This document shows, piece after piece, positions 8,130 to 22,780 of a DNA stretch of 64,000 bases. This stretch comes from Candidatus Abzuiibacterium crystallinum. GTDB lineage: Bacteria > Omnitrophota > Omnitrophia > Omnitrophales > Abzuiibacteriaceae. Where the stretch lies: positions 71,884-135,883 of the forward strand of contig PCVY01000016.1 in NCBI GenBank assembly GCA_002787155.1, written 5' to 3'. The notes beneath the pieces were generated by a model. The model was not told the origin of the DNA. It searched no databases and saw only the letters and a list, made by a program, of their open reading frames with translations. The position numbers and the translations under genes are program-made. Each line of letters starts with the position of its first letter. Position 1 is the stretch's first letter.

Positions 8130-9194
8130 ATGCAAATTCCCTTTATCCAAGCGCTATCGTCTAAACTGAGCCGAAAGGAACAGGGAGGCTTGTCGCAAAA
8201 TCAAGTGACGATAGGCTTAGATATCGGACGAGCGCATATCAATGCCATTCAGCTTCAAAAAGCGTCCGGTAGTATTATCATTGATAAATATGCGCATCAG
8301 CAGATCATTCCTAACGCACCGCCCTCCCAACAAATTGCACAGCTATTCACAAGTGCACAGATGCTGCAAAAGAATATCCGCATTTCAATGAAAGGGCAGG
8401 GGGTGATCCTGCGATTTATTAGTTTTCCCAAAATGACTCGTGAAGAGTTTGAAAGCGCAATTCAATATGAAGCTGAGAAATATTTACCTTTTGCCATGTC
8501 CGAAGTTGTGCTCGATTTCCATATTTGCGAGAGTCCTCAAGGACAAACCCCGCAAAAAAACATGGATGTGATTTTGGTAGCTGCACGCCGCCAAGAAGTG
8601 TTGAAGTTAGTAAAAACTTTTCAGGAAATCAATTTGCAGGTTGAAGCCATTGATGTGGATGCCATTGCTTTTTCTAATGCGTTTTTGCATGTGCATAAAG
8701 AAGCCAAAGAGAAAGTGTTTGTTTTGATCGACTTTGGCGCAAAAGACGTTAACGTTAATATCATAAACCACGGTATTCTTTGTTTTTCTCGAGACATCAC
8801 ATTTGGCGGATATGACATTACTCAGTTTCTTAAACGGAAACTTCAAATCGGCGATCAAGAGGCGCTTGCGATTCAATCAACGCCAAATTTGTCGCAATCG
8901 CCCCACGTTGACGTTTTGAAGCAAAGTTTTTCAACCCTCATTCAAGAAATTAAAATATCAATTAATTATTTTTATAATCAGCATGCCGATTTGGAAAAAC
9001 CGAGCGCCATCTACGTCAATGGCGGATTGGCCAGGATGGAGCTGTTAATTGAAACAATCGAAAAAGAAGTGGGCATACCCGTTAAACATTGGAATTCAGT
9101 TGAGCCCTTTGTGGTTGGACCCGAAGTGAAAAAAGATGAACTCGAAAAGCATCATTCTTATTTACCGGTCTGCATCGGTTTAGCGCTTAGGTGA
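8130..9194 (+). CDS. pilM: Type IV pilus assembly protein PilM (actin-like ATPase fold)
   Basis: 354 aa. GLDIGRAHINAIQL N-terminal actin-fold motif. Followed by pilNOPQ. Confidence 0.8.
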   Translation: MQIPFIQALSSKLSRKEQGGLSQNQVTIGLDIGRAHINAIQLQKASGSIIIDKYAHQQIIPNAPPSQQIAQLFTSAQMLQKNIRISMKGQGVILRFISFPKMTREEFESAIQYEAEKYLPFAMSEVVLDFHICESPQGQTPQKNMDVILVAARRQEVLKLVKTFQEINLQVEAIDVDAIAFSNAFLHVHKEAKEKVFVLIDFGAKDVNVNIINHGILCFSRDITFGGYDITQFLKRKLQIGDQEALAIQSTPNLSQSPHVDVLKQSFSTLIQEIKISINYFYNQHADLEKPSAIYVNGGLARMELLIETIEKEVGIPVKHWNSVEPFVVGPEVKKDELEKHHSYLPVCIGLALR

Positions 9195-9198
9195 GGCA

Positions 9199-9810
9199 AT
9201 GATTAAGGTCAATTTACTTCCAATTGAATTCAGGCAGGTAGAGGTTAAGCAAAGCCGTGTTAAACCGCAAACTGCGCTGCTTGCCATTTTTTTCTTACTA
9301 TTGGCGGTTGCCTTAATTCAACTCTTTTCGTATGTCACCGTTCAGCAAAAAGTTCATCGATTCGAATCGGAAATGGAAGTTTTGAAAGCCCCGAGTGCTA
9401 AATCCGATTCTTTAACAACTGCCATTAAATCAAAACTTGAACCGGAAATCGCATTCTTCCGCCGCCACGTCTTAGCCAATGTGCTGGTTGCGGAAATCTT
9501 AAATAGTGCAAGTGATTTACTGCCGGAAGGCATGTGGTTATCCGATATACGATTAAATCGCGGCGGGGAAGCCGTTGTTTTAGAGATGACCGGTTACGCA
9601 AAGTTGACAACCAAACAAATCGCAGTTGCTCAAATTCAGGAATATGTCAACAAATTAAAGGCGCAGCTTGAAACGATGTTAAATGAAGGTGTGTCGGATA
9701 ACAGAATGCAGGAAGTGAAAATTACATTAAGCACGAACTTGCGGGAAGTTTCTAGCTCCGAGGTGATGCAGTTTGCTGTGAATTTTCAATCACTCAGGAA
9801 GAGCGGCTGA
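9199..9810 (+). CDS. pilN: Type IV pilus assembly protein PilN
   Basis: MIKVNLLP N-terminus and a single transmembrane helix (PilN/GspL-like). Gene order pilM-N-O-P-Q. Confidence 0.7.
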   Translation: MIKVNLLPIEFRQVEVKQSRVKPQTALLAIFFLLLAVALIQLFSYVTVQQKVHRFESEMEVLKAPSAKSDSLTTAIKSKLEPEIAFFRRHVLANVLVAEILNSASDLLPEGMWLSDIRLNRGGEAVVLEMTGYAKLTTKQIAVAQIQEYVNKLKAQLETMLNEGVSDNRMQEVKITLSTNLREVSSSEVMQFAVNFQSLRKSG

Positions 9811-9811
9811 T

Positions 9812-10450
9812 ATGGCAACGCCACAGGGCAAAGGACAAAAGAAAGCGACGGCTAAAAAGACGCCCATCGAAGCGCTTAAACTGCTTTGGGAGAAAGACCG
9901 TAAACAAGTGATCCAATTGGGTATTATCGTGCTGGGAGTCCTCGTTCTTCTCAGCTGCATTGTGATTCCGCTTTTCTTTAAAAACAGCACCATTCATAAT
10001 CAGGTCAAACAATTAGAGCTCAATATTCGAACTTCAAAATCGAAACGGGACAGAATTCCCGAACTAGAGGAAAAACTAAAGCAGTATGAAACAGAAATTG
10101 GCAGCACGCGCAAACGGTTCTTTCAAATCCATGAACTTGATGAATTGCTGGGCGAAATATCAAAGTTAGCCAGCAAGGACGGCGTCACATTGGTGGGATC
10201 GCGGCCGCTTAGCGACTTACAAAAAAATTTTCCAGCACCTTATGATAAAAAATATTTCGCCGTCACCTATGAGTTAACACTCGCCGGCGGGTATCACCAA
10301 TTCGGAAGTCTTTTTAGCCGGCTTGAACAGCTGGACAAACTGTTACTCATTCGTGATCTTAACATCAAACAAAATAGCGCGAGATCATTGCAAAATTTGC
10401 AATGCGTTGTGCAAGTTGACGCATTTGTCCTCGCGCCGCAAGGTCTATGA
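9812..10450 (+). CDS. pilO: Type IV pilus assembly protein PilO
   Basis: Single N-terminal transmembrane helix, coiled-coil and periplasmic domain. Start abuts the pilN stop. Confidence 0.65.
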   Translation: MATPQGKGQKKATAKKTPIEALKLLWEKDRKQVIQLGIIVLGVLVLLSCIVIPLFFKNSTIHNQVKQLELNIRTSKSKRDRIPELEEKLKQYETEIGSTRKRFFQIHELDELLGEISKLASKDGVTLVGSRPLSDLQKNFPAPYDKKYFAVTYELTLAGGYHQFGSLFSRLEQLDKLLLIRDLNIKQNSARSLQNLQCVVQVDAFVLAPQGL

Positions 10451-10803
10451 TGAAGCGTCATTTAATAAGCTTTGTAATTGCCGCATTTTTTAGTACCGGC
10501 CTTTTTTCATTAGCATTTGCTGATGATTTTCGTTATGATAGTCACGGTAAACGGGATCCATTTATGGAGCCGTCGATGCGGACTGCGGTGGTAAAACAAG
10601 AAACGGGTTCGATAACAAATTTACGGCTAGAAGGTGTTGTGATTGATCCGGGCGGCCGCTCAGTTGCTATTGTTAATGGAGAAATGGTCGGAGCAGGTGA
10701 CCAGATCGGAAATCAAATCGTGGTTAAAAAAATCACCAATCATGGTGTTGAGTTTGAAAATAACGGAAAAGTCTTCACTATTCCATTAATAACCGAAGAA
10801 TAA
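10447..10803 (+). CDS. pilP: Type IV pilus assembly lipoprotein PilP-like
   Basis: 118 aa with a signal peptide and a beta-rich domain. 4-nt overlap with pilO. Immediately precedes the secretin. Confidence 0.5.
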   Translation: MMKRHLISFVIAAFFSTGLFSLAFADDFRYDSHGKRDPFMEPSMRTAVVKQETGSITNLRLEGVVIDPGGRSVAIVNGEMVGAGDQIGNQIVVKKITNHGVEFENNGKVFTIPLITEE

Positions 10804-10824
10804 CGACGCAAAGGAGTTGGACAA

Positions 10825-12540
10825 ATGAATCCCTTGCCCGCTCGAAGAAAAATAAGAAAAAAAAATTTGTTAGGCTATGTGTTGTTCATTGTCTTTTTGC
10901 TGTGGAACGCCGGGGCGTTTGCTGATCAAAACGACGGTGTGCCAACTGATAATTCAAATAGTTCAGACGCCCAAAACTTTGACGAAGCAGCCGATGAGGC
11001 AGTTGGTCAATTAAACCAAGACGCACCGACTGCCCTGGAAGAAAACCAACCTGAGGAGTTGGAAATGGCCGGCGATGAGGATGTGAGCACTGCTTCTATG
11101 GTGATGCCCGTTGAGGAGATGGAAGAAGAAATAAGCAGTGATGAAGAAGCCGTTCAGCTCGCCAGCCAGGACACGACTGCCCCGGGGAATGTGAGTCTTG
11201 ATTTTAAAGATGCTGACATCTTGAATGTTCTACGGGTGCTTAGCTTAAAAAGCAACGTGAATATTGTGGCCGGTCCTGAAGTAGAGGGGACAGTTACCAT
11301 TCGTTTGTCAGACGTTCCGTGGGAAAAAGCCATGGATGTTGTTTTGCGTACTTACGGATATGTTTACGAGCGGGAAGGAAATATCATTCGTGTCACGACC
11401 AAAGATAATTTATCAACAGAGGAATTAGTCACTGAAACTTACGTGTTGAATTACACCACATCACAAGAAGTCGAAGAGGCAATTCGCGATGTCTTATCAG
11501 AGCGCGGACGCGTCAAATCGGTACCGCGTGCAAATACCATTATCGTTTCTGATGTGCCCACCAACATGTATAAGATCAGTCAGGTAATAGCCGCGCTTGA
11601 TCAAATTACCCCGCAAGTCTATATCGATGCAAAGATTGTGCGAACCGAGTTAAATGAGAACGAAGATCTTGGCATCGGTTGGAATCTTCAAGGATCAATA
11701 ACGGGCGGATCGCGCGAGGTTACTTTTCCGTTTACTGCACCGGGCAACACAACGGATTTTAACCCCATCAATAATCTATTTAACGATTTTTTCGCAGGCA
11801 AGGCCCCCTTTAGTAACCTTGACAATGAAGCAGTCAATGTCACTGACTCAACGGCGACTGAGGCCGGATTTACCTTAGGAACGCTTAATTTTCAATCTCT
11901 GAGTGCGGCGTTGGCTTATCTGCGGTCGAAAACAAATACCAAGATTGTTTCGAATCCGCGCATTGTTGTTTTAAACAATCAAACAGCAAAAGTGCAAGTG
12001 GGCAATGAAATACCAATACCCACATTTGAACGAAATGAAACAACCGGCAGTTTTGTTATTTCCGGATTTACCTACCGTGATACCGGCGTTGTTTTGAATG
12101 TTACTCCCCACATTAATGCCGCACGTGAAATCTTGGTTGATTTAAAACCCGAAGTAAGCAGTCAGGCAGCAGATGTAAGTTTTGGAACAGGTGTTTTTCA
12201 AGCACCTTCGTTTAGCACAACGACCGCTGAAACTCAATTGCTCATCAAAGATGGTGAAACAATTGCAATCGGAGGTCTCATGCGTGATCTGGAAAAATAC
12301 GAGGAGGATTCGGTCCCCGGTTTGTCAAAGATTCCGTTAATTGGCCGCTTATTCAGGAACTCAACAAAGCCAGCGGGATCGGATGCAAATCAAAAGATCG
12401 AGACATTATTTTTCATCACCATTTCTATCGTAGATACAGCTGGACAGCGTACAATGGTGCAGCCAATGCGTCGGAATACCACCATTGTACCTGCGCAAAC
12501 AGCCGTAAATACAGTTGGAATTCAACAAAACCCAGTTTAA
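10825..12540 (+). CDS. pilQ: Type IV pilus secretin PilQ
   Basis: Signal peptide. Acidic low-complexity N-terminal region. C-terminal secretin domain (GETIAIGGL...VPGLSKIPLIGRLF). Confidence 0.85.
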   Translation: MNPLPARRKIRKKNLLGYVLFIVFLLWNAGAFADQNDGVPTDNSNSSDAQNFDEAADEAVGQLNQDAPTALEENQPEELEMAGDEDVSTASMVMPVEEMEEEISSDEEAVQLASQDTTAPGNVSLDFKDADILNVLRVLSLKSNVNIVAGPEVEGTVTIRLSDVPWEKAMDVVLRTYGYVYEREGNIIRVTTKDNLSTEELVTETYVLNYTTSQEVEEAIRDVLSERGRVKSVPRANTIIVSDVPTNMYKISQVIAALDQITPQVYIDAKIVRTELNENEDLGIGWNLQGSITGGSREVTFPFTAPGNTTDFNPINNLFNDFFAGKAPFSNLDNEAVNVTDSTATEAGFTLGTLNFQSLSAALAYLRSKTNTKIVSNPRIVVLNNQTAKVQVGNEIPIPTFERNETTGSFVISGFTYRDTGVVLNVTPHINAAREILVDLKPEVSSQAADVSFGTGVFQAPSFSTTTAETQLLIKDGETIAIGGLMRDLEKYEEDSVPGLSKIPLIGRLFRNSTKPAGSDANQKIETLFFITISIVDTAGQRTMVQPMRRNTTIVPAQTAVNTVGIQQNPV

Positions 12541-14563: not shown

Positions 14564-14993
14564 GAAAAGAAAAACTCAAAAGAAAAAAACGAGTCAGGGT
14601 AAGAAAAAGAGAGCTAAGCCAACCAAGCGTAAAAAAACATCTAAGCAGCAAGCCAGATCAAACCTGAAACCCAAAAAAGGATTACTTAAGACGTTTGTCG
14701 GTAAATTATTGGGGAAGGGCAAAAAAGGAGATTTAGCGGCAAAAGGAAAATTGATAGGCGCGATCACGCATTATTTTCCACACGTACATGCCGGGGTTCT
14801 GATCCTTCGTTCAGGACAACTCAAGCGGGGTGACCGTATTTACATCAAGGGTCACACAACCGATTTTAAGCAAATTGTTGATTCACTTCAAATAGATCGT
14901 GTCAATATCGAGACCGCTAAGAAAGGTGATGAGATCGGCATCGCTGTTAAAAAAAGAGTGCGCGTCGGCGACGAAGTTTATTTGATTGGCTAG
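14556..14993 (+). CDS. Lysine-rich, histone H1-like small protein with a C-terminal beta-barrel (EF-Tu domain-2-like) domain
   Basis: About 60 N-terminal residues are extremely K/R-rich (MAKKRKTQKKKTSQGKKKRAKPTKRKKTSKQQ...). The C-terminus has a GxV...LKRGDRIYIKG...GDEIGIAVKK...VGDEVYL pattern. Confidence 0.5.
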   Translation: MAKKRKTQKKKTSQGKKKRAKPTKRKKTSKQQARSNLKPKKGLLKTFVGKLLGKGKKGDLAAKGKLIGAITHYFPHVHAGVLILRSGQLKRGDRIYIKGHTTDFKQIVDSLQIDRVNIETAKKGDEIGIAVKKRVRVGDEVYLIG

Positions 14994-19510: not shown

Positions 19511-20032
19511 ATGTCTGTTAAACCCATCGTGTTGTACCCGGATCATATACTGCGAAAGTCAGTCAAACGTGTTCAGGGCATCACCTCATTTGAACGAGGA
19601 ATCATTAGGGATCTCATTGACACCATGGCTGTTCAACCTGGCGGTATTGGCATTGCAGCCCCGCAAATTGGCTATGATCGAGCGATTGCCGTTATAGATG
19701 TCAGTAGCAGAGAAAAGGGCAAAAAACGGCTTATTCTGGTGAATCCTGAGCTATTAACAGGGGAGGGGGCAAAAATAGGCAGAGAAGGGTGTATGAGTTT
19801 ACCGCATCACACAGGCAATGTTTCGCGGTATGAGAGAGTGACAGTTCATTATCATGATGAAGATTTCAAAGTCCGTCAAATAGCGGCCGCTGGTATTGAA
19901 GCGATTTGTCTTCAGCACGAACTCGATCATTTAAATGGCTATTTGTTTTTAGACCGTGTTCACTCAGTTGCGCGCGATGTTTTTCGTCGGAAAGTCTATC
20001 GACGGCACCCGCCATCGGCTTCAAAAAAGTAA
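19511..20032 (+). CDS. def: Peptide deformylase
   Basis: GIGIAAPQIG, EGCMSLP and QHELDHLNG motifs. I chose ATG 19511 (MSVKPIVLYPD), which removes the overlap created by the ORF-track start at 19388. Confidence 0.85.
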   Translation: MSVKPIVLYPDHILRKSVKRVQGITSFERGIIRDLIDTMAVQPGGIGIAAPQIGYDRAIAVIDVSSREKGKKRLILVNPELLTGEGAKIGREGCMSLPHHTGNVSRYERVTVHYHDEDFKVRQIAAAGIEAICLQHELDHLNGYLFLDRVHSVARDVFRRKVYRRHPPSASKK

Positions 20033-20069: not shown

Positions 20070-21713
20070 ATGCAGCCAGTCATTAAGAAAATTTGCAATC
20101 TTATTAATGCCGAAAGTCTAGAACTGCAATTAGCGGCTATTCGCGTGCTGGCGGAACTTCAGGTGCGGGACCCTCAAGTAGTTCAGCTGATCGGACAGCG
20201 CATCAAAAAAGCTTCTTCGCCGCAGTTAAGGGTTGCTTTGTTAGAGATTGTGGCAAAAACGCCCGTCACCGCTTATCTTCCGCACTTAATTGACGCGTTA
20301 CAAAGCTCCGAAATGCAGCGTGATCGCATCGTGTCAATCATGACGCAAATGGGGCCGGGCGCAGTGCCTTATTTGCGAAAAGCTTACAAAAAGGTTACCT
20401 ATCAAACCAAGCAAGCCATCTTAGATGTGTTTGCACGACTAAAGAGCAGGGAGGCAATCGATTTCCTTTTAATGGCTTTGCTTGATCAAAGCAATTTTGA
20501 ACACCTGCGGTATGTATGCAGTTTATTGCGGCCGATCCTGGCGCAGGCGGAGCGGAAGAACCGTTCGTGGCTCCGGACTCGAATTGTTCGTTTTGTGAAC
20601 CGCACTGATGTGAAGAAAAACGCCTCGGTTTTAACCTCCGGTATTATTTTGATGGGATATTTAGGGGACGTTTCTTTTAAAAAAAATCTTTTGAAATTCA
20701 TCGCAACGAATCGCGAGTTAGGTGTGCGTAAATTTGCACTCATTTCGCTGTCGCTGCTCCCGCTGGAGAAAAAGGGAAATGAAGACGTCATAAAAGCGTT
20801 ATTCCCGCTTTTACACCATGATGATTTTTCAAACATTGTTAAAAACGCGATTGCCACCTTGGAAAAACAGACGCTTCCGGAAAAATATAAGAAACAACTA
20901 ACGAAGCTCTTAGAAAGCCATCATCCGTCCGTACGAAGTTTTGCGCTCTCAAAATTGGGGACATACGATTCGAAAGAAAATGTTTCGACTTTAACGCGTT
21001 ATTTGGATTCTAATGATTTTAGGATCCGGGACGCGGCTAAATCTTCGCTAGAAAAAATGTCACGCGCTGTCCCGGCTTTGTTGATTCAATTTGACCACGC
21101 AAGCGGTCCGGAAAAAGCTAGTCAAATTATTCATATTCTGCAGTCCCACAAGATTTACTTTAAAAAGCGAGCGGCTTGTCAGAGCATCGTGAAACGGGCT
21201 GAAAAGCTAGTGAAACAAAATAATGAGCAGTACAAGCGTTATTTTGCGCTCTTAAAAGCTGTGAATCCTGATTATTTATATACTTATGTGATGACAAGTG
21301 TTAAAGCGTTCCAACGAAAGAAGAAATGGGATCAAGCTCTGTTTTACTTGAATCAAATTGAAGGAAGTGTCCTGTTTAATGAAGAAGCGCGATTTGCCTA
21401 TATGGTTAACCTTCTAAAACGTTCAAAACAGGACCTTTCAAGCGCTTATCGCGACCAAGACAAGGGACTTTTGATGCTTCAAAGCATGGTTAAATCAGCC
21501 GGAGCCAGTTTTGCGAAACGGATCCAAAAGGAGAAGGCCTTTGATCCCAAAGACAAGTACTATATTGGATTTCACTTTTCAGAGAAGTTGTTTGATCTTC
21601 GGGAATTCGGGATTCAAGTATTGAAACAACTGGCTAAAGGGAATACAACGTTGGGGCGGCTTGCCAAGAAGAAGTTAAGCATTGTCGGGAGTCTTTCTGC
21701 AGCAGCAGTTTAG
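20070..21713 (+). CDS. HEAT/PBS-lyase repeat protein, hypothetical
   Basis: Repeated ~30-aa helical repeats of the type IRVLAELQVRDP, SVRSFALSKLG and FRIRDAAKSSL. Start taken at ATG 20070 to avoid overlap with def. Confidence 0.5.
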   Translation: MQPVIKKICNLINAESLELQLAAIRVLAELQVRDPQVVQLIGQRIKKASSPQLRVALLEIVAKTPVTAYLPHLIDALQSSEMQRDRIVSIMTQMGPGAVPYLRKAYKKVTYQTKQAILDVFARLKSREAIDFLLMALLDQSNFEHLRYVCSLLRPILAQAERKNRSWLRTRIVRFVNRTDVKKNASVLTSGIILMGYLGDVSFKKNLLKFIATNRELGVRKFALISLSLLPLEKKGNEDVIKALFPLLHHDDFSNIVKNAIATLEKQTLPEKYKKQLTKLLESHHPSVRSFALSKLGTYDSKENVSTLTRYLDSNDFRIRDAAKSSLEKMSRAVPALLIQFDHASGPEKASQIIHILQSHKIYFKKRAACQSIVKRAEKLVKQNNEQYKRYFALLKAVNPDYLYTYVMTSVKAFQRKKKWDQALFYLNQIEGSVLFNEEARFAYMVNLLKRSKQDLSSAYRDQDKGLLMLQSMVKSAGASFAKRIQKEKAFDPKDKYYIGFHFSEKLFDLREFGIQVLKQLAKGNTTLGRLAKKKLSIVGSLSAAAV

Positions 21714-21731
21714 TTGTTGATTGTATAATGA

Positions 21732-21759
21732 ACGTCCTATAATATATCTTATGTAAGAT
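21732..21759. other. dif: dif-like XerC/XerD chromosome dimer resolution site
   Basis: ACGTCCTATAATATATCTTATGTAAGAT has the 11-bp arm, 6-bp AT-rich centre and 11-bp arm layout with a TTATGT..A..T XerD half-site. It matches a remembered 28-bp degenerate dif consensus at about 26 of 28 positions. Sits in the only convergent intergenic gap, where gene orientation switches from all + to all -. Confidence 0.6.
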
Positions 21760-21781
21760 GTACTACTGATAAAAACCGCGC

Positions 21782-22780
21782 TCACCAATCCTTCTCGACA
21801 TACTCATCCTCGCGCTTCTTCTCCGGAGGTCGCCTGACAATCTGCAGCTCCTGCTCGCCATCCTTAAGTGCATCCAGGATTCGCAAGGCATCTTCTTTTG
21901 ACATTTGACCTTGCAAGTATTCACCGGCTTTAGTACCGCCCTGATTCACTAACTCCTGTTTTTCTGATTGATTTGGCTTTAATTCAGCTTGCTGCTGTGG
22001 CTGTTGTTGCTGAGGCTTTTGGTTAGGTTCGGGCTGCTGCTGGTTCTGTTGCTCATCTTGCTGATTTTTCGGCTTTTTTTGCTCGGTTTCCTTACTTTCC
22101 TGATCATTTTGCTGCTGATTCTGCTCACCCTTTTCTTGTTTTTGATCTTTAGATTGATCTTGCCCTTGATCTTGCTGGTCCTGTTTCGAATCTGATCCGC
22201 CTTGGTTTTGGTTTTGCTGCTGATTTTGGGACTGATTGTTCTGATTCTGATTTTGCTGTTGCTTCTGGTTCTGGTTTTTTTGATTTTCCTGCTGCTTTTC
22301 GTTTTGGCGGTCACGTTCCTTTTGCTTATCTTCAAAAGCGCCTTTTTTCTTCATCAGGAGTTCTAAATTGTGTTTAGCATCTCGATCTTCAGGATCAAGA
22401 TCCAGCGTTTTTTTGTAAGCTTCGACGGCTTTCTCAAAATCCCCCAAGCGGTATTGCCCATTACCGTAGTTATACCAGTATTGCGCCAACATTTTCTTAT
22501 CAGTTTTCTGGTCTTTTGTTTCTTGAATCGCTTTATCCAGTGAAGCCCCCGCATTTACAAAGTCACCCGCTTTGTAGAGAGTCGTCCCAATGTTGTAATG
22601 CACTTCCGGCCGATGGGGGCTTTTGACTTGTGCTTTCTGGAATTGTTCAAGCGCTGATTGATACTTTTTTTGTTCGAACAAATCGTTTCCTTTTTTCGTC
22701 AGGCCGGATGCTGAATCAAACCATGCACTGAAGAAACCTAAAAAACAAAATAGTATGAAAATTCGGAAAAATGGCATCAT
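21782..22780 (-). CDS. TPR-repeat protein with a long Q/N-rich low-complexity region (BatC-like)
   Basis: N-terminal transmembrane/signal segment. TPR motifs (YQSALEQFQKA, YNIGTTLYKAGDF). About 130 aa of QNQ/KQ-rich low complexity. Last gene of the MoxR-vWA array. Start trimmed to the MMPFF Met so it abuts the batB stop. Confidence 0.55.
   Translation of the reverse strand: MMPFFRIFILFCFLGFFSAWFDSASGLTKKGNDLFEQKKYQSALEQFQKAQVKSPHRPEVHYNIGTTLYKAGDFVNAGASLDKAIQETKDQKTDKKMLAQYWYNYGNGQYRLGDFEKAVEAYKKTLDLDPEDRDAKHNLELLMKKKGAFEDKQKERDRQNEKQQENQKNQNQKQQQNQNQNNQSQNQQQNQNQGGSDSKQDQQDQGQDQSKDQKQEKGEQNQQQNDQESKETEQKKPKNQQDEQQNQQQPEPNQKPQQQQPQQQAELKPNQSEKQELVNQGGTKAGEYLQGQMSKEDALRILDALKDGEQELQIVRRPPEKKREDEYVEKDW

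Follow-up and report, generated by a model that had tools for sequence, protein, structure and literature searches.

The convergent gap and its neighbours

On the contig studied here, two long runs of genes converge on a gap that holds a 28-bp site resembling dif (Table 1). The window is the whole 64-kb stretch of DNA that was analysed; it reads in reverse on the metagenome contig Ga0210009_1000079 (JGI 3300025833), whose length is 116,532 bp. The genes on either side of the gap, a HEAT-repeat protein gene on the left and a TPR protein gene on the right, both end with their stop codons facing it. To the right the TPR gene closes a Bat/MoxR-type operon with the content TPR, VWA, BatA-VWA, DUF58 and MoxR ATPase. 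Inside the 68-bp gap there are no promoter-like or terminator-like sites, and an Rfam search of the gap returned no family at E≤1. Its predicted RNA fold has a z-score of −0.24 and is no better than that of shuffled sequence. A reading of the gap as a terminator or a structured RNA is rejected on these three counts.

The flanking genes include the core housekeeping genes recA, alaS, smc, a fab cluster, rpmF, gap-pgk-tpi, secG, priA and def-fmt. The site therefore lies on a chromosome and not on a plasmid. There are two peptide deformylase genes on the contig, one per arm, at 19511-20032 (+) and ~67931-68419 (−). The second (L007 4269-4757, just past the window end) adjoins fmt. Some 9-25 kb from the terminus, the left arm also carries a type IV pilus-like locus that is complete (window 1-12540 plus ~8.6 kb upstream, L004). 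Its genes encode two MshEN-domain T2SSE ATPases, T2SSF, a sensor kinase with a sigma-54 response regulator, a pilin, a 607-aa TPR protein, PilM, PilO and a secretin.

Table 1. Positions of the 28-bp site, its surroundings and the comparison loci
Feature	Locus	Position	Strand	Remarks
28-bp site read as dif, ACGTCCTATAATATATCTTATGTAAGAT	window	21732-21759	+	sequence and coordinates exactly as originally predicted
Left arm ACGTCCTATAA, putative XerC-binding half	window	21732-21742	+	by alignment with E. coli and B. subtilis dif
Centre TATATC, 6 bp, presumed strand-exchange region	window	21743-21748	+	11-6-11 layout by alignment to published dif
Right arm TTATGTAAGAT, putative XerD-binding half	window	21749-21759	+	by alignment with published dif sites
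Left replichore arm	window	1-21713		all called genes +; GC skew +0.01 to +0.14 (2-kb windows, to ~21 kb)
Right replichore arm	window	21782-64000		all called genes −; GC skew mostly negative, down to −0.13
Convergent intergenic gap, 68 bp, holding the site	window	21714-21781		
HEAT-repeat protein gene, 547 aa	window	20070-21713	+	gene call, Pfam HEAT_2; last of left replichore arm; synteny anchor
TPR protein gene, 332 aa	window	21782-22780	−	last of Bat/MoxR-type operon and of right arm
Sites with C at the last central position	L026, L049, L050, L058, L071, L072, L092, L093, L120, L015, L017, L157, window	21748 (window)		
Modified dif ACGTCCTATAATGTATCAAGTGTTAAAT	L157	1735-1762		one end of the inserted element
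Intact dif ACGTCCTATAATGTATCTTATGTTAAGT	L157	12839-12866		other end; perfect Omnitrophota-type
Inserted element with both flanking copies	L157	1735-12866		
XerD-like gene	L024	312-1184		35-46% identical to E. coli XerD (range for all three); site at 7402
XerD-like gene	L035	6006-6857		site at 587
XerD-like gene	L082	503-1363		site at 7200
Viral contig family with dif-like 28-mer	L140-L148, L151, L153, L155			IMG/VR, mostly sample 3300045988
Viral dif-like site	L148	9224-9251		
Integrase ORF	L148	9265-10578		
Viral dif-like site	L144	2665-2692		
Integrase ORF	L144	1350-2516		

The 28-bp site and its match to published dif sequences

The survey of Kono et al. 2011 gives GGTGCGCATAATGTATATTATGTTAAAT for E. 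coli dif and ACTTCCTAGAATATATATTATGTAAACT for B. subtilis dif, classes the B. subtilis site as experimentally confirmed and predicts dif in 641 organisms of 16 phyla (PMC3025954). The reference sequences used in the original prediction are the same as those printed. Alignment to them bears out the proposed division of the window site into two 11-bp arms around a 6-bp centre, and the 28-mer lies inside the gap with the letters and coordinates first given for it. The left arm is identical to that of B. subtilis dif at 9 of 11 positions. The right arm agrees with the right arms of E. coli and B. subtilis dif (PMC3025954) at 9 of 11 positions each, counted by eye. Between the two arms of the window site 6 of 11 positions are self-complementary, as would suit binding by two distinct recombinases.

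Over its full length the site matches B. subtilis dif at 23 of 28 positions, as had been counted. The background was a set of 300 Markov-simulated 64-kb windows with the same dinucleotide make-up, of which the best reached 21/28. Since no simulated window scored above 21/28, the likeness to B. subtilis dif is beyond chance. The predicted count of 18/28 to E. coli dif is also correct, but it is no better than background, with other window positions scoring 18-19.

A single copy had been expected, and the 28-mer is indeed unique in the accessible DNA: it occurs once in the 64-kb window at ≤3 mismatches, and 100 shuffles gave 0 matches. The left arm and centre taken alone (the first 17 nt) also have a single occurrence in the window at ≤3 mismatches.

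Gene orientation and nucleotide skew

Inside the window 22 called genes lie on the + strand up to 21713, and 42 called genes and one further ORF lie on the − strand from 21782. Opposite-strand ORFs of ≥100 aa do occur in the window, every one of them nested in a longer ORF. The complete switch of strand at the gap thus stands as predicted, while the numbers first put forward (~26 and ~45 genes) were slightly above those called. The one-strand pattern was also expected to continue outside the window, and it does so at both ends, to ~−8.6 kb on the left (L004) and to +72.7 kb on the right (L007; ~8.7 kb). Over 81 kb of the 116.5-kb contig all 31 called genes left of the site are on the + strand and all 50 on its right are on the − strand. 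Such strong gene-strand bias is known from PolC-type lineages, for example the Bacillota. Taking the contig pieces together (L004, L001, L010, L007), 81/81 called genes point to the site, and the genes of the relatives L015, L017 and L157 are likewise co-oriented.

The cumulative G−C curve, computed at base resolution over 81.3 kb, has its maximum at window position 21730, 2 bp before the site, which is also where GC skew in 2-kb windows turns from positive to mostly negative. The forecast that a skew extremum would fall here holds for GC skew, locally over these 81.3 kb. AT skew is noisier and has its cumulative T−A minimum at 14975, away from the site. The skew switch is not independent evidence for a terminus, because every gene is co-oriented and skew and strand are fully confounded. 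Of the words examined as KOPS-like guide motifs for FtsK, GGGNAGGG is oriented toward the site at a ratio of 9:0 and GAGAAGGG at 3:0; yet G-rich words overall are skewed 3-5:1, with all genes co-oriented, which confounds this polarity.

Conservation in relatives and across phyla

The HEAT-repeat neighbour has few homologs, at 27-45% identity. In two groups of relatives, L015/L016 (from the groundwater metagenome assembly GCA_900206355.1) and L017/L018, the HEAT protein is 44-45% identical and the same convergent junction is present, with sites (ACGTCCGATAATATATCTTATGTAATAT and AAGTCCTATAATATATCTTATGTAATAT, respectively) that match the window site at 26 of 28 positions. The gap around the site is unalignable in the relatives outside the 28-mer. 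The site of a more distant relative, L157, agrees with that of the window at 24/28. In a four-way alignment 21 of 28 positions are invariant in the site against 22 of 193 elsewhere, and all four syntenic relatives have an unchanged TTATGT in the right arm. Judged from this alignment, a site kept while the surrounding gap diverges is a clean phylogenetic footprint. The cumulative G−C maximum of L015 falls 27 bp from its own site. Another HEAT homolog (L019, 27% identity) stands in a different context, where nothing dif-like comes within 8 mismatches of the 28-mer.

A scan with the degenerate pattern GTCCNATAATNTATNTTATGTNANNT, using one genome per species, found at least 120 different genomes, with one match each among the matches listed. 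The phyla among these listed matches include Bacteroidota, Bacillota, Alphaproteobacteria, Planctomycetota, Acidobacteriota, Thermodesulfobacteriota and others, together with at least 10 Omnitrophota MAGs. Where ≥1.5 kb was available on either side of the site, 53 of 61 loci among the matches listed show a drop in GC skew from one side to the other (sign test, p=1.5e-9). On the same terms the skew runs from positive to negative in 30 loci and the reverse way in 1. The site is intergenic in all 10 Omnitrophota loci among the matches listed; in most of them the ORFs to its left are on the + strand and those to its right on the − strand. Relative to the arms, the site is found in either orientation.

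Among 14 Omnitrophota sites, left-arm positions 3-6 and 8-11 do not vary, with the qualification that the search pattern fixed these positions for the 10 sites from the genome scan. The last central position, which the pattern left free, is C in 13 of the 14. The resulting Omnitrophota dif consensus is A[C/T]GTCC[T/G]ATAAT[A/G]TATCTTATGT[A/T]A..T. Matches outside the Omnitrophota mostly have A at the last central position and some have C, for example L024, L127, L132 and L134.

Recombinase and FtsK genes

Tblastn with E. coli XerC and XerD as queries (sequences approximate) detected no tyrosine recombinase genes between −8.6 kb and +72.7 kb in window coordinates, that is, over ~30 kb to the left of the site and ~51 kb to its right. 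The same search of the Omnitrophota loci gave no match either; matches came only from loci of other phyla and from three viral contigs. Classical XerCD genes lie far from dif (PMC1914069). The lack of a recombinase gene within tens of kilobases fits this classical layout, unlike the XerS module (PMC1914069). FtsK, which probably activates the reaction, is encoded by a gene reported in 2025 to be conserved throughout the PVC superphylum, in which the authors include the Omnitrophota (PMC12283558). No description of the dif site or Xer proteins of Omnitrophota was found in the searchable literature. In one Acidobacteria and two Ignavibacteria genomes an XerD-like gene lies ~6 kb from a dif-class site, closer than in the classical layout (Table 1).

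The site might instead be a dif served by a single Xer homotetramer, in the manner of XerS, XerH or XerL, and not by an XerC/XerD pair. Single-recombinase systems do exist in several lineages (PMC1914069; PMC9765430). In the window site the arms clearly differ, as their 6/11 self-complementarity indicates, and the site has both the length of 28 bp and the 23/28 agreement with the XerC/D-type dif of B. subtilis. The same sequence class is present in Brevibacillus, sphingomonads and Bacteroidota. An XerS site, moreover, adjoins its recombinase gene on the upstream side, and here there is none within 30-50 kb. A homotetramer is for these reasons an unlikely partner of the site, and a pair of XerC/D-type recombinases is preferred.

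An element inserted at dif in a relative

In the relatives L157/L158/L159 (HEAT protein 33% identical; one contig of 421 kb) a phage-like element of 11,076 bp sits exactly between the converging arms. The order in L157 is HEAT gene, EF-P gene, ACGTCCTATAATGTATCAAGTGTTAAAT, 11,076 bp of small genes, ACGTCCTATAATGTATCTTATGTTAAGT and then the minus-strand arm with the Bat operon. The flanking copies, one modified and one intact, are direct repeats 11,104 bp apart and 24/28 identical. Their left arm and centre are the same; the right arm diverges over its first three bases, and one more position differs. In the 421-kb contig of this relative the degenerate pattern matches only these two copies. 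Genes of the element encode a phage-type replication initiator, a terminase-nuclease-like fragment, a tail-fibre-like protein and a DPBB lipoprotein. No integrase was found in it by Pfam (ORFs of ≥160 aa scanned or with precomputed hits) or by tblastn with XerC/XerD at E≤10. Besides L157, the element is carried by L158, L159, L013, L014, L160 and L161; it has no counterpart in the window. A second half-site, which would mark such an insertion in the window too, is absent from the window at ≤3 mismatches.

An integrase-less element lying between an intact and a modified dif shows the pattern published for IMEXs, integrative mobile elements exploiting Xer (PMC9765430). LME-1 of Legionella leaves such an intact and a modified dif, which stabilises the insertion (PMC9765430). 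The element of L157/L158/L159 is likewise integrated at dif between direct dif and dif-like repeats. As far as comparison of sequences goes, this arrangement indicates that tyrosine-recombinase strand exchange has occurred within this class of dif sites in the Omnitrophota lineage. The L157 element itself is a candidate IMEX or Xer-dependent satellite. The insertion alone does not prove the action of host Xer, because some phages carry a dif-like core beside their own integrase.

Neither an empty site nor a free circle of the element came to light: the viral contigs lack the hybrid site, and the element's Rep protein has no relative among those contigs. A metagenome scan for the empty or circular form returned the two known copies and L162 only. 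In L162 (Ga0111183_1013, 40,346 bp) positions 235-262 carry the 28-mer of the intact L157 dif, preceded by the same 3 upstream bases, in an unrelated context. Sibling insertions were sought through Rep homologs and the candidates were set aside: there are 10 distant homologs on short contigs, and the longest of these (L163), a tailed-phage replication module with DnaB and NinG, is not an insertion at dif.

Viral contigs with a dif-like core

A family of viral contigs of 33-63 kb (Table 1) carries a canonical dif-like 28-mer, either ACGTCCGATAATATATCTTATGTTAAAT or a variant that departs from it at the first two bases only. In the two members checked, L144 and L148, a gene for a phage tyrosine integrase (PF00589, E ~1e-23) follows directly, with the 28-mer on its upstream side. 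Across the dif-like site of the viral contigs there is no fall in GC skew. The module looks like an attP-int arrangement whose core mimics the host dif.

These contigs, with an integrase gene next to the 28-mer and no fall in GC skew, and the element inserted in the site of a relative would also suit a site that is mainly an attB for phage or satellite integrases, kept by mobile targeting and having no role in dimer resolution. Attachment sites, however, persist in host-conserved sequence, whereas this site is intergenic and conserved amid diverged surroundings. It also marks skew-switch points in at least 120 genomes of many phyla, almost all of them without a visible element, and it matches the experimentally confirmed dif of B. 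subtilis (Kono et al., PMC3025954). Use by mobile elements is, furthermore, a known secondary use of dif and not an alternative to it (PMC9765430). A purely attB function is accordingly very improbable, and a chromosomal dif is the preferred reading.

Interpretation

We conclude with high confidence that the 28-mer is a canonical XerC/D-type chromosomal dif, placed at a replication terminus that is local and very probably that of the whole Omnitrophota chromosome. The call rests on the match to B. subtilis dif, the uniqueness of the site in the accessible DNA, its position, the footprint, its generality, the recombination signature in a relative and the gene layout. A dif at the replication terminus was the central claim of the original prediction, and it is supported by GC skew, single copy, strand bias, conservation, occurrence in other phyla and the element in the relative, for a terminus that is local to the 81 kb covered. 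That a chance likeness in an AT-rich convergent gap coincides with the edge of a large inversion or an operon block is the least credible reading: the 18/28 to E. coli dif at background, the confounding of skew with gene orientation and a view of the replicon of 81 kb would allow it, but 23/28 to B. subtilis dif was reached in 0/300 simulations, relatives whose gaps are otherwise unalignable retain 26/28 of the 28-mer, the convergent junction itself is kept at ~45% protein identity, and an inversion edge would not account for a dif-class sequence 2 bp from the cumulative skew maximum.

Taking the dif reading, the steps that follow are those of established dif/Xer knowledge applied to this locus. 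The two replication forks would meet at the site, with its 11-bp XerC arm, 6-bp centre and 11-bp XerD arm. An odd number of crossovers would leave the sister chromosomes joined as a dimer, whose two dif copies would be paired at the closing septum. Bound to the arms as a tetramer and probably activated by FtsK, tyrosine recombinases would then exchange strands across the 6-bp centre. This exchange would restore two monomers.

A broader proposal, about as likely as not, is that the dif of this Omnitrophota lineage is exploited by phage-type elements. The L157 element would then be the first IMEX or Xer-dependent phage satellite described for the Omnitrophota and an unusual, non-filamentous one, the dif-mimic phages would be a separate case, and the window site would be an unoccupied attB.

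A dif is expected in nearly all bacteria with a circular chromosome, and the finding brings nothing new on mechanism. Its use is practical. The site marks the terminus on a contig from an uncultured member of the Omnitrophota, which makes it possible to place genes on one replichore or the other and aids the ordering of contigs. It can serve as the 'ter' anchor for origin-to-terminus coverage ratios, from which growth rates are estimated in metagenomes. The Omnitrophota dif consensus can be used to search other MAGs, and the site points to mobile elements that insert at dif.

Comparison with known systems

The systems of XerS (in streptococci and lactococci, acting at difSL), XerH and XerL are alike in resolving dimers at the terminus and in having inverted arms around a short centre. 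The difSL site is 31 bp long, only weakly similar to classical dif and located immediately upstream of xerS (PMC1914069). The window site differs in its 28 bp and its closeness to classical dif, and its neighbours are a HEAT-repeat and a TPR gene, with no recombinase gene within tens of kilobases.

The element in the relative invites comparison with IMEX, of which CTX-phi, TLC-phi and the gonococcal genetic island are examples. Like these, the L157 element occupies the dif position between direct repeats, of which one is intact and the other modified, and no integrase was detected in it; LME-1 also leaves an intact and a modified dif. The classic IMEX phages are filamentous, whereas the genes of the L157 element are tailed-phage-like. 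The element also belongs to the relative and not to the window, and dependence on the host Xer is a candidate mechanism to which the integrase of a helper phage is the alternative.

The closest parallel is classical dif/XerCD. In B. subtilis the XerC and XerD homologues are CodV and RipX. The window site shares with the classical system its 28 bp in an 11-6-11 layout, the 23/28 agreement with B. subtilis dif and the TTATGT that opens the XerD arm. It is likewise a single copy in the accessible DNA, intergenic and placed at the GC-skew shift point, and recombinase genes do not adjoin it. The differences are that the host is an uncultured member of the Omnitrophota, in which the recombinases, the activity of the site and the dependence on FtsK are putative, and that the last central base is C in the Omnitrophota lineage (TATATC or TGTATC) as against A in E. 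coli and B. subtilis.
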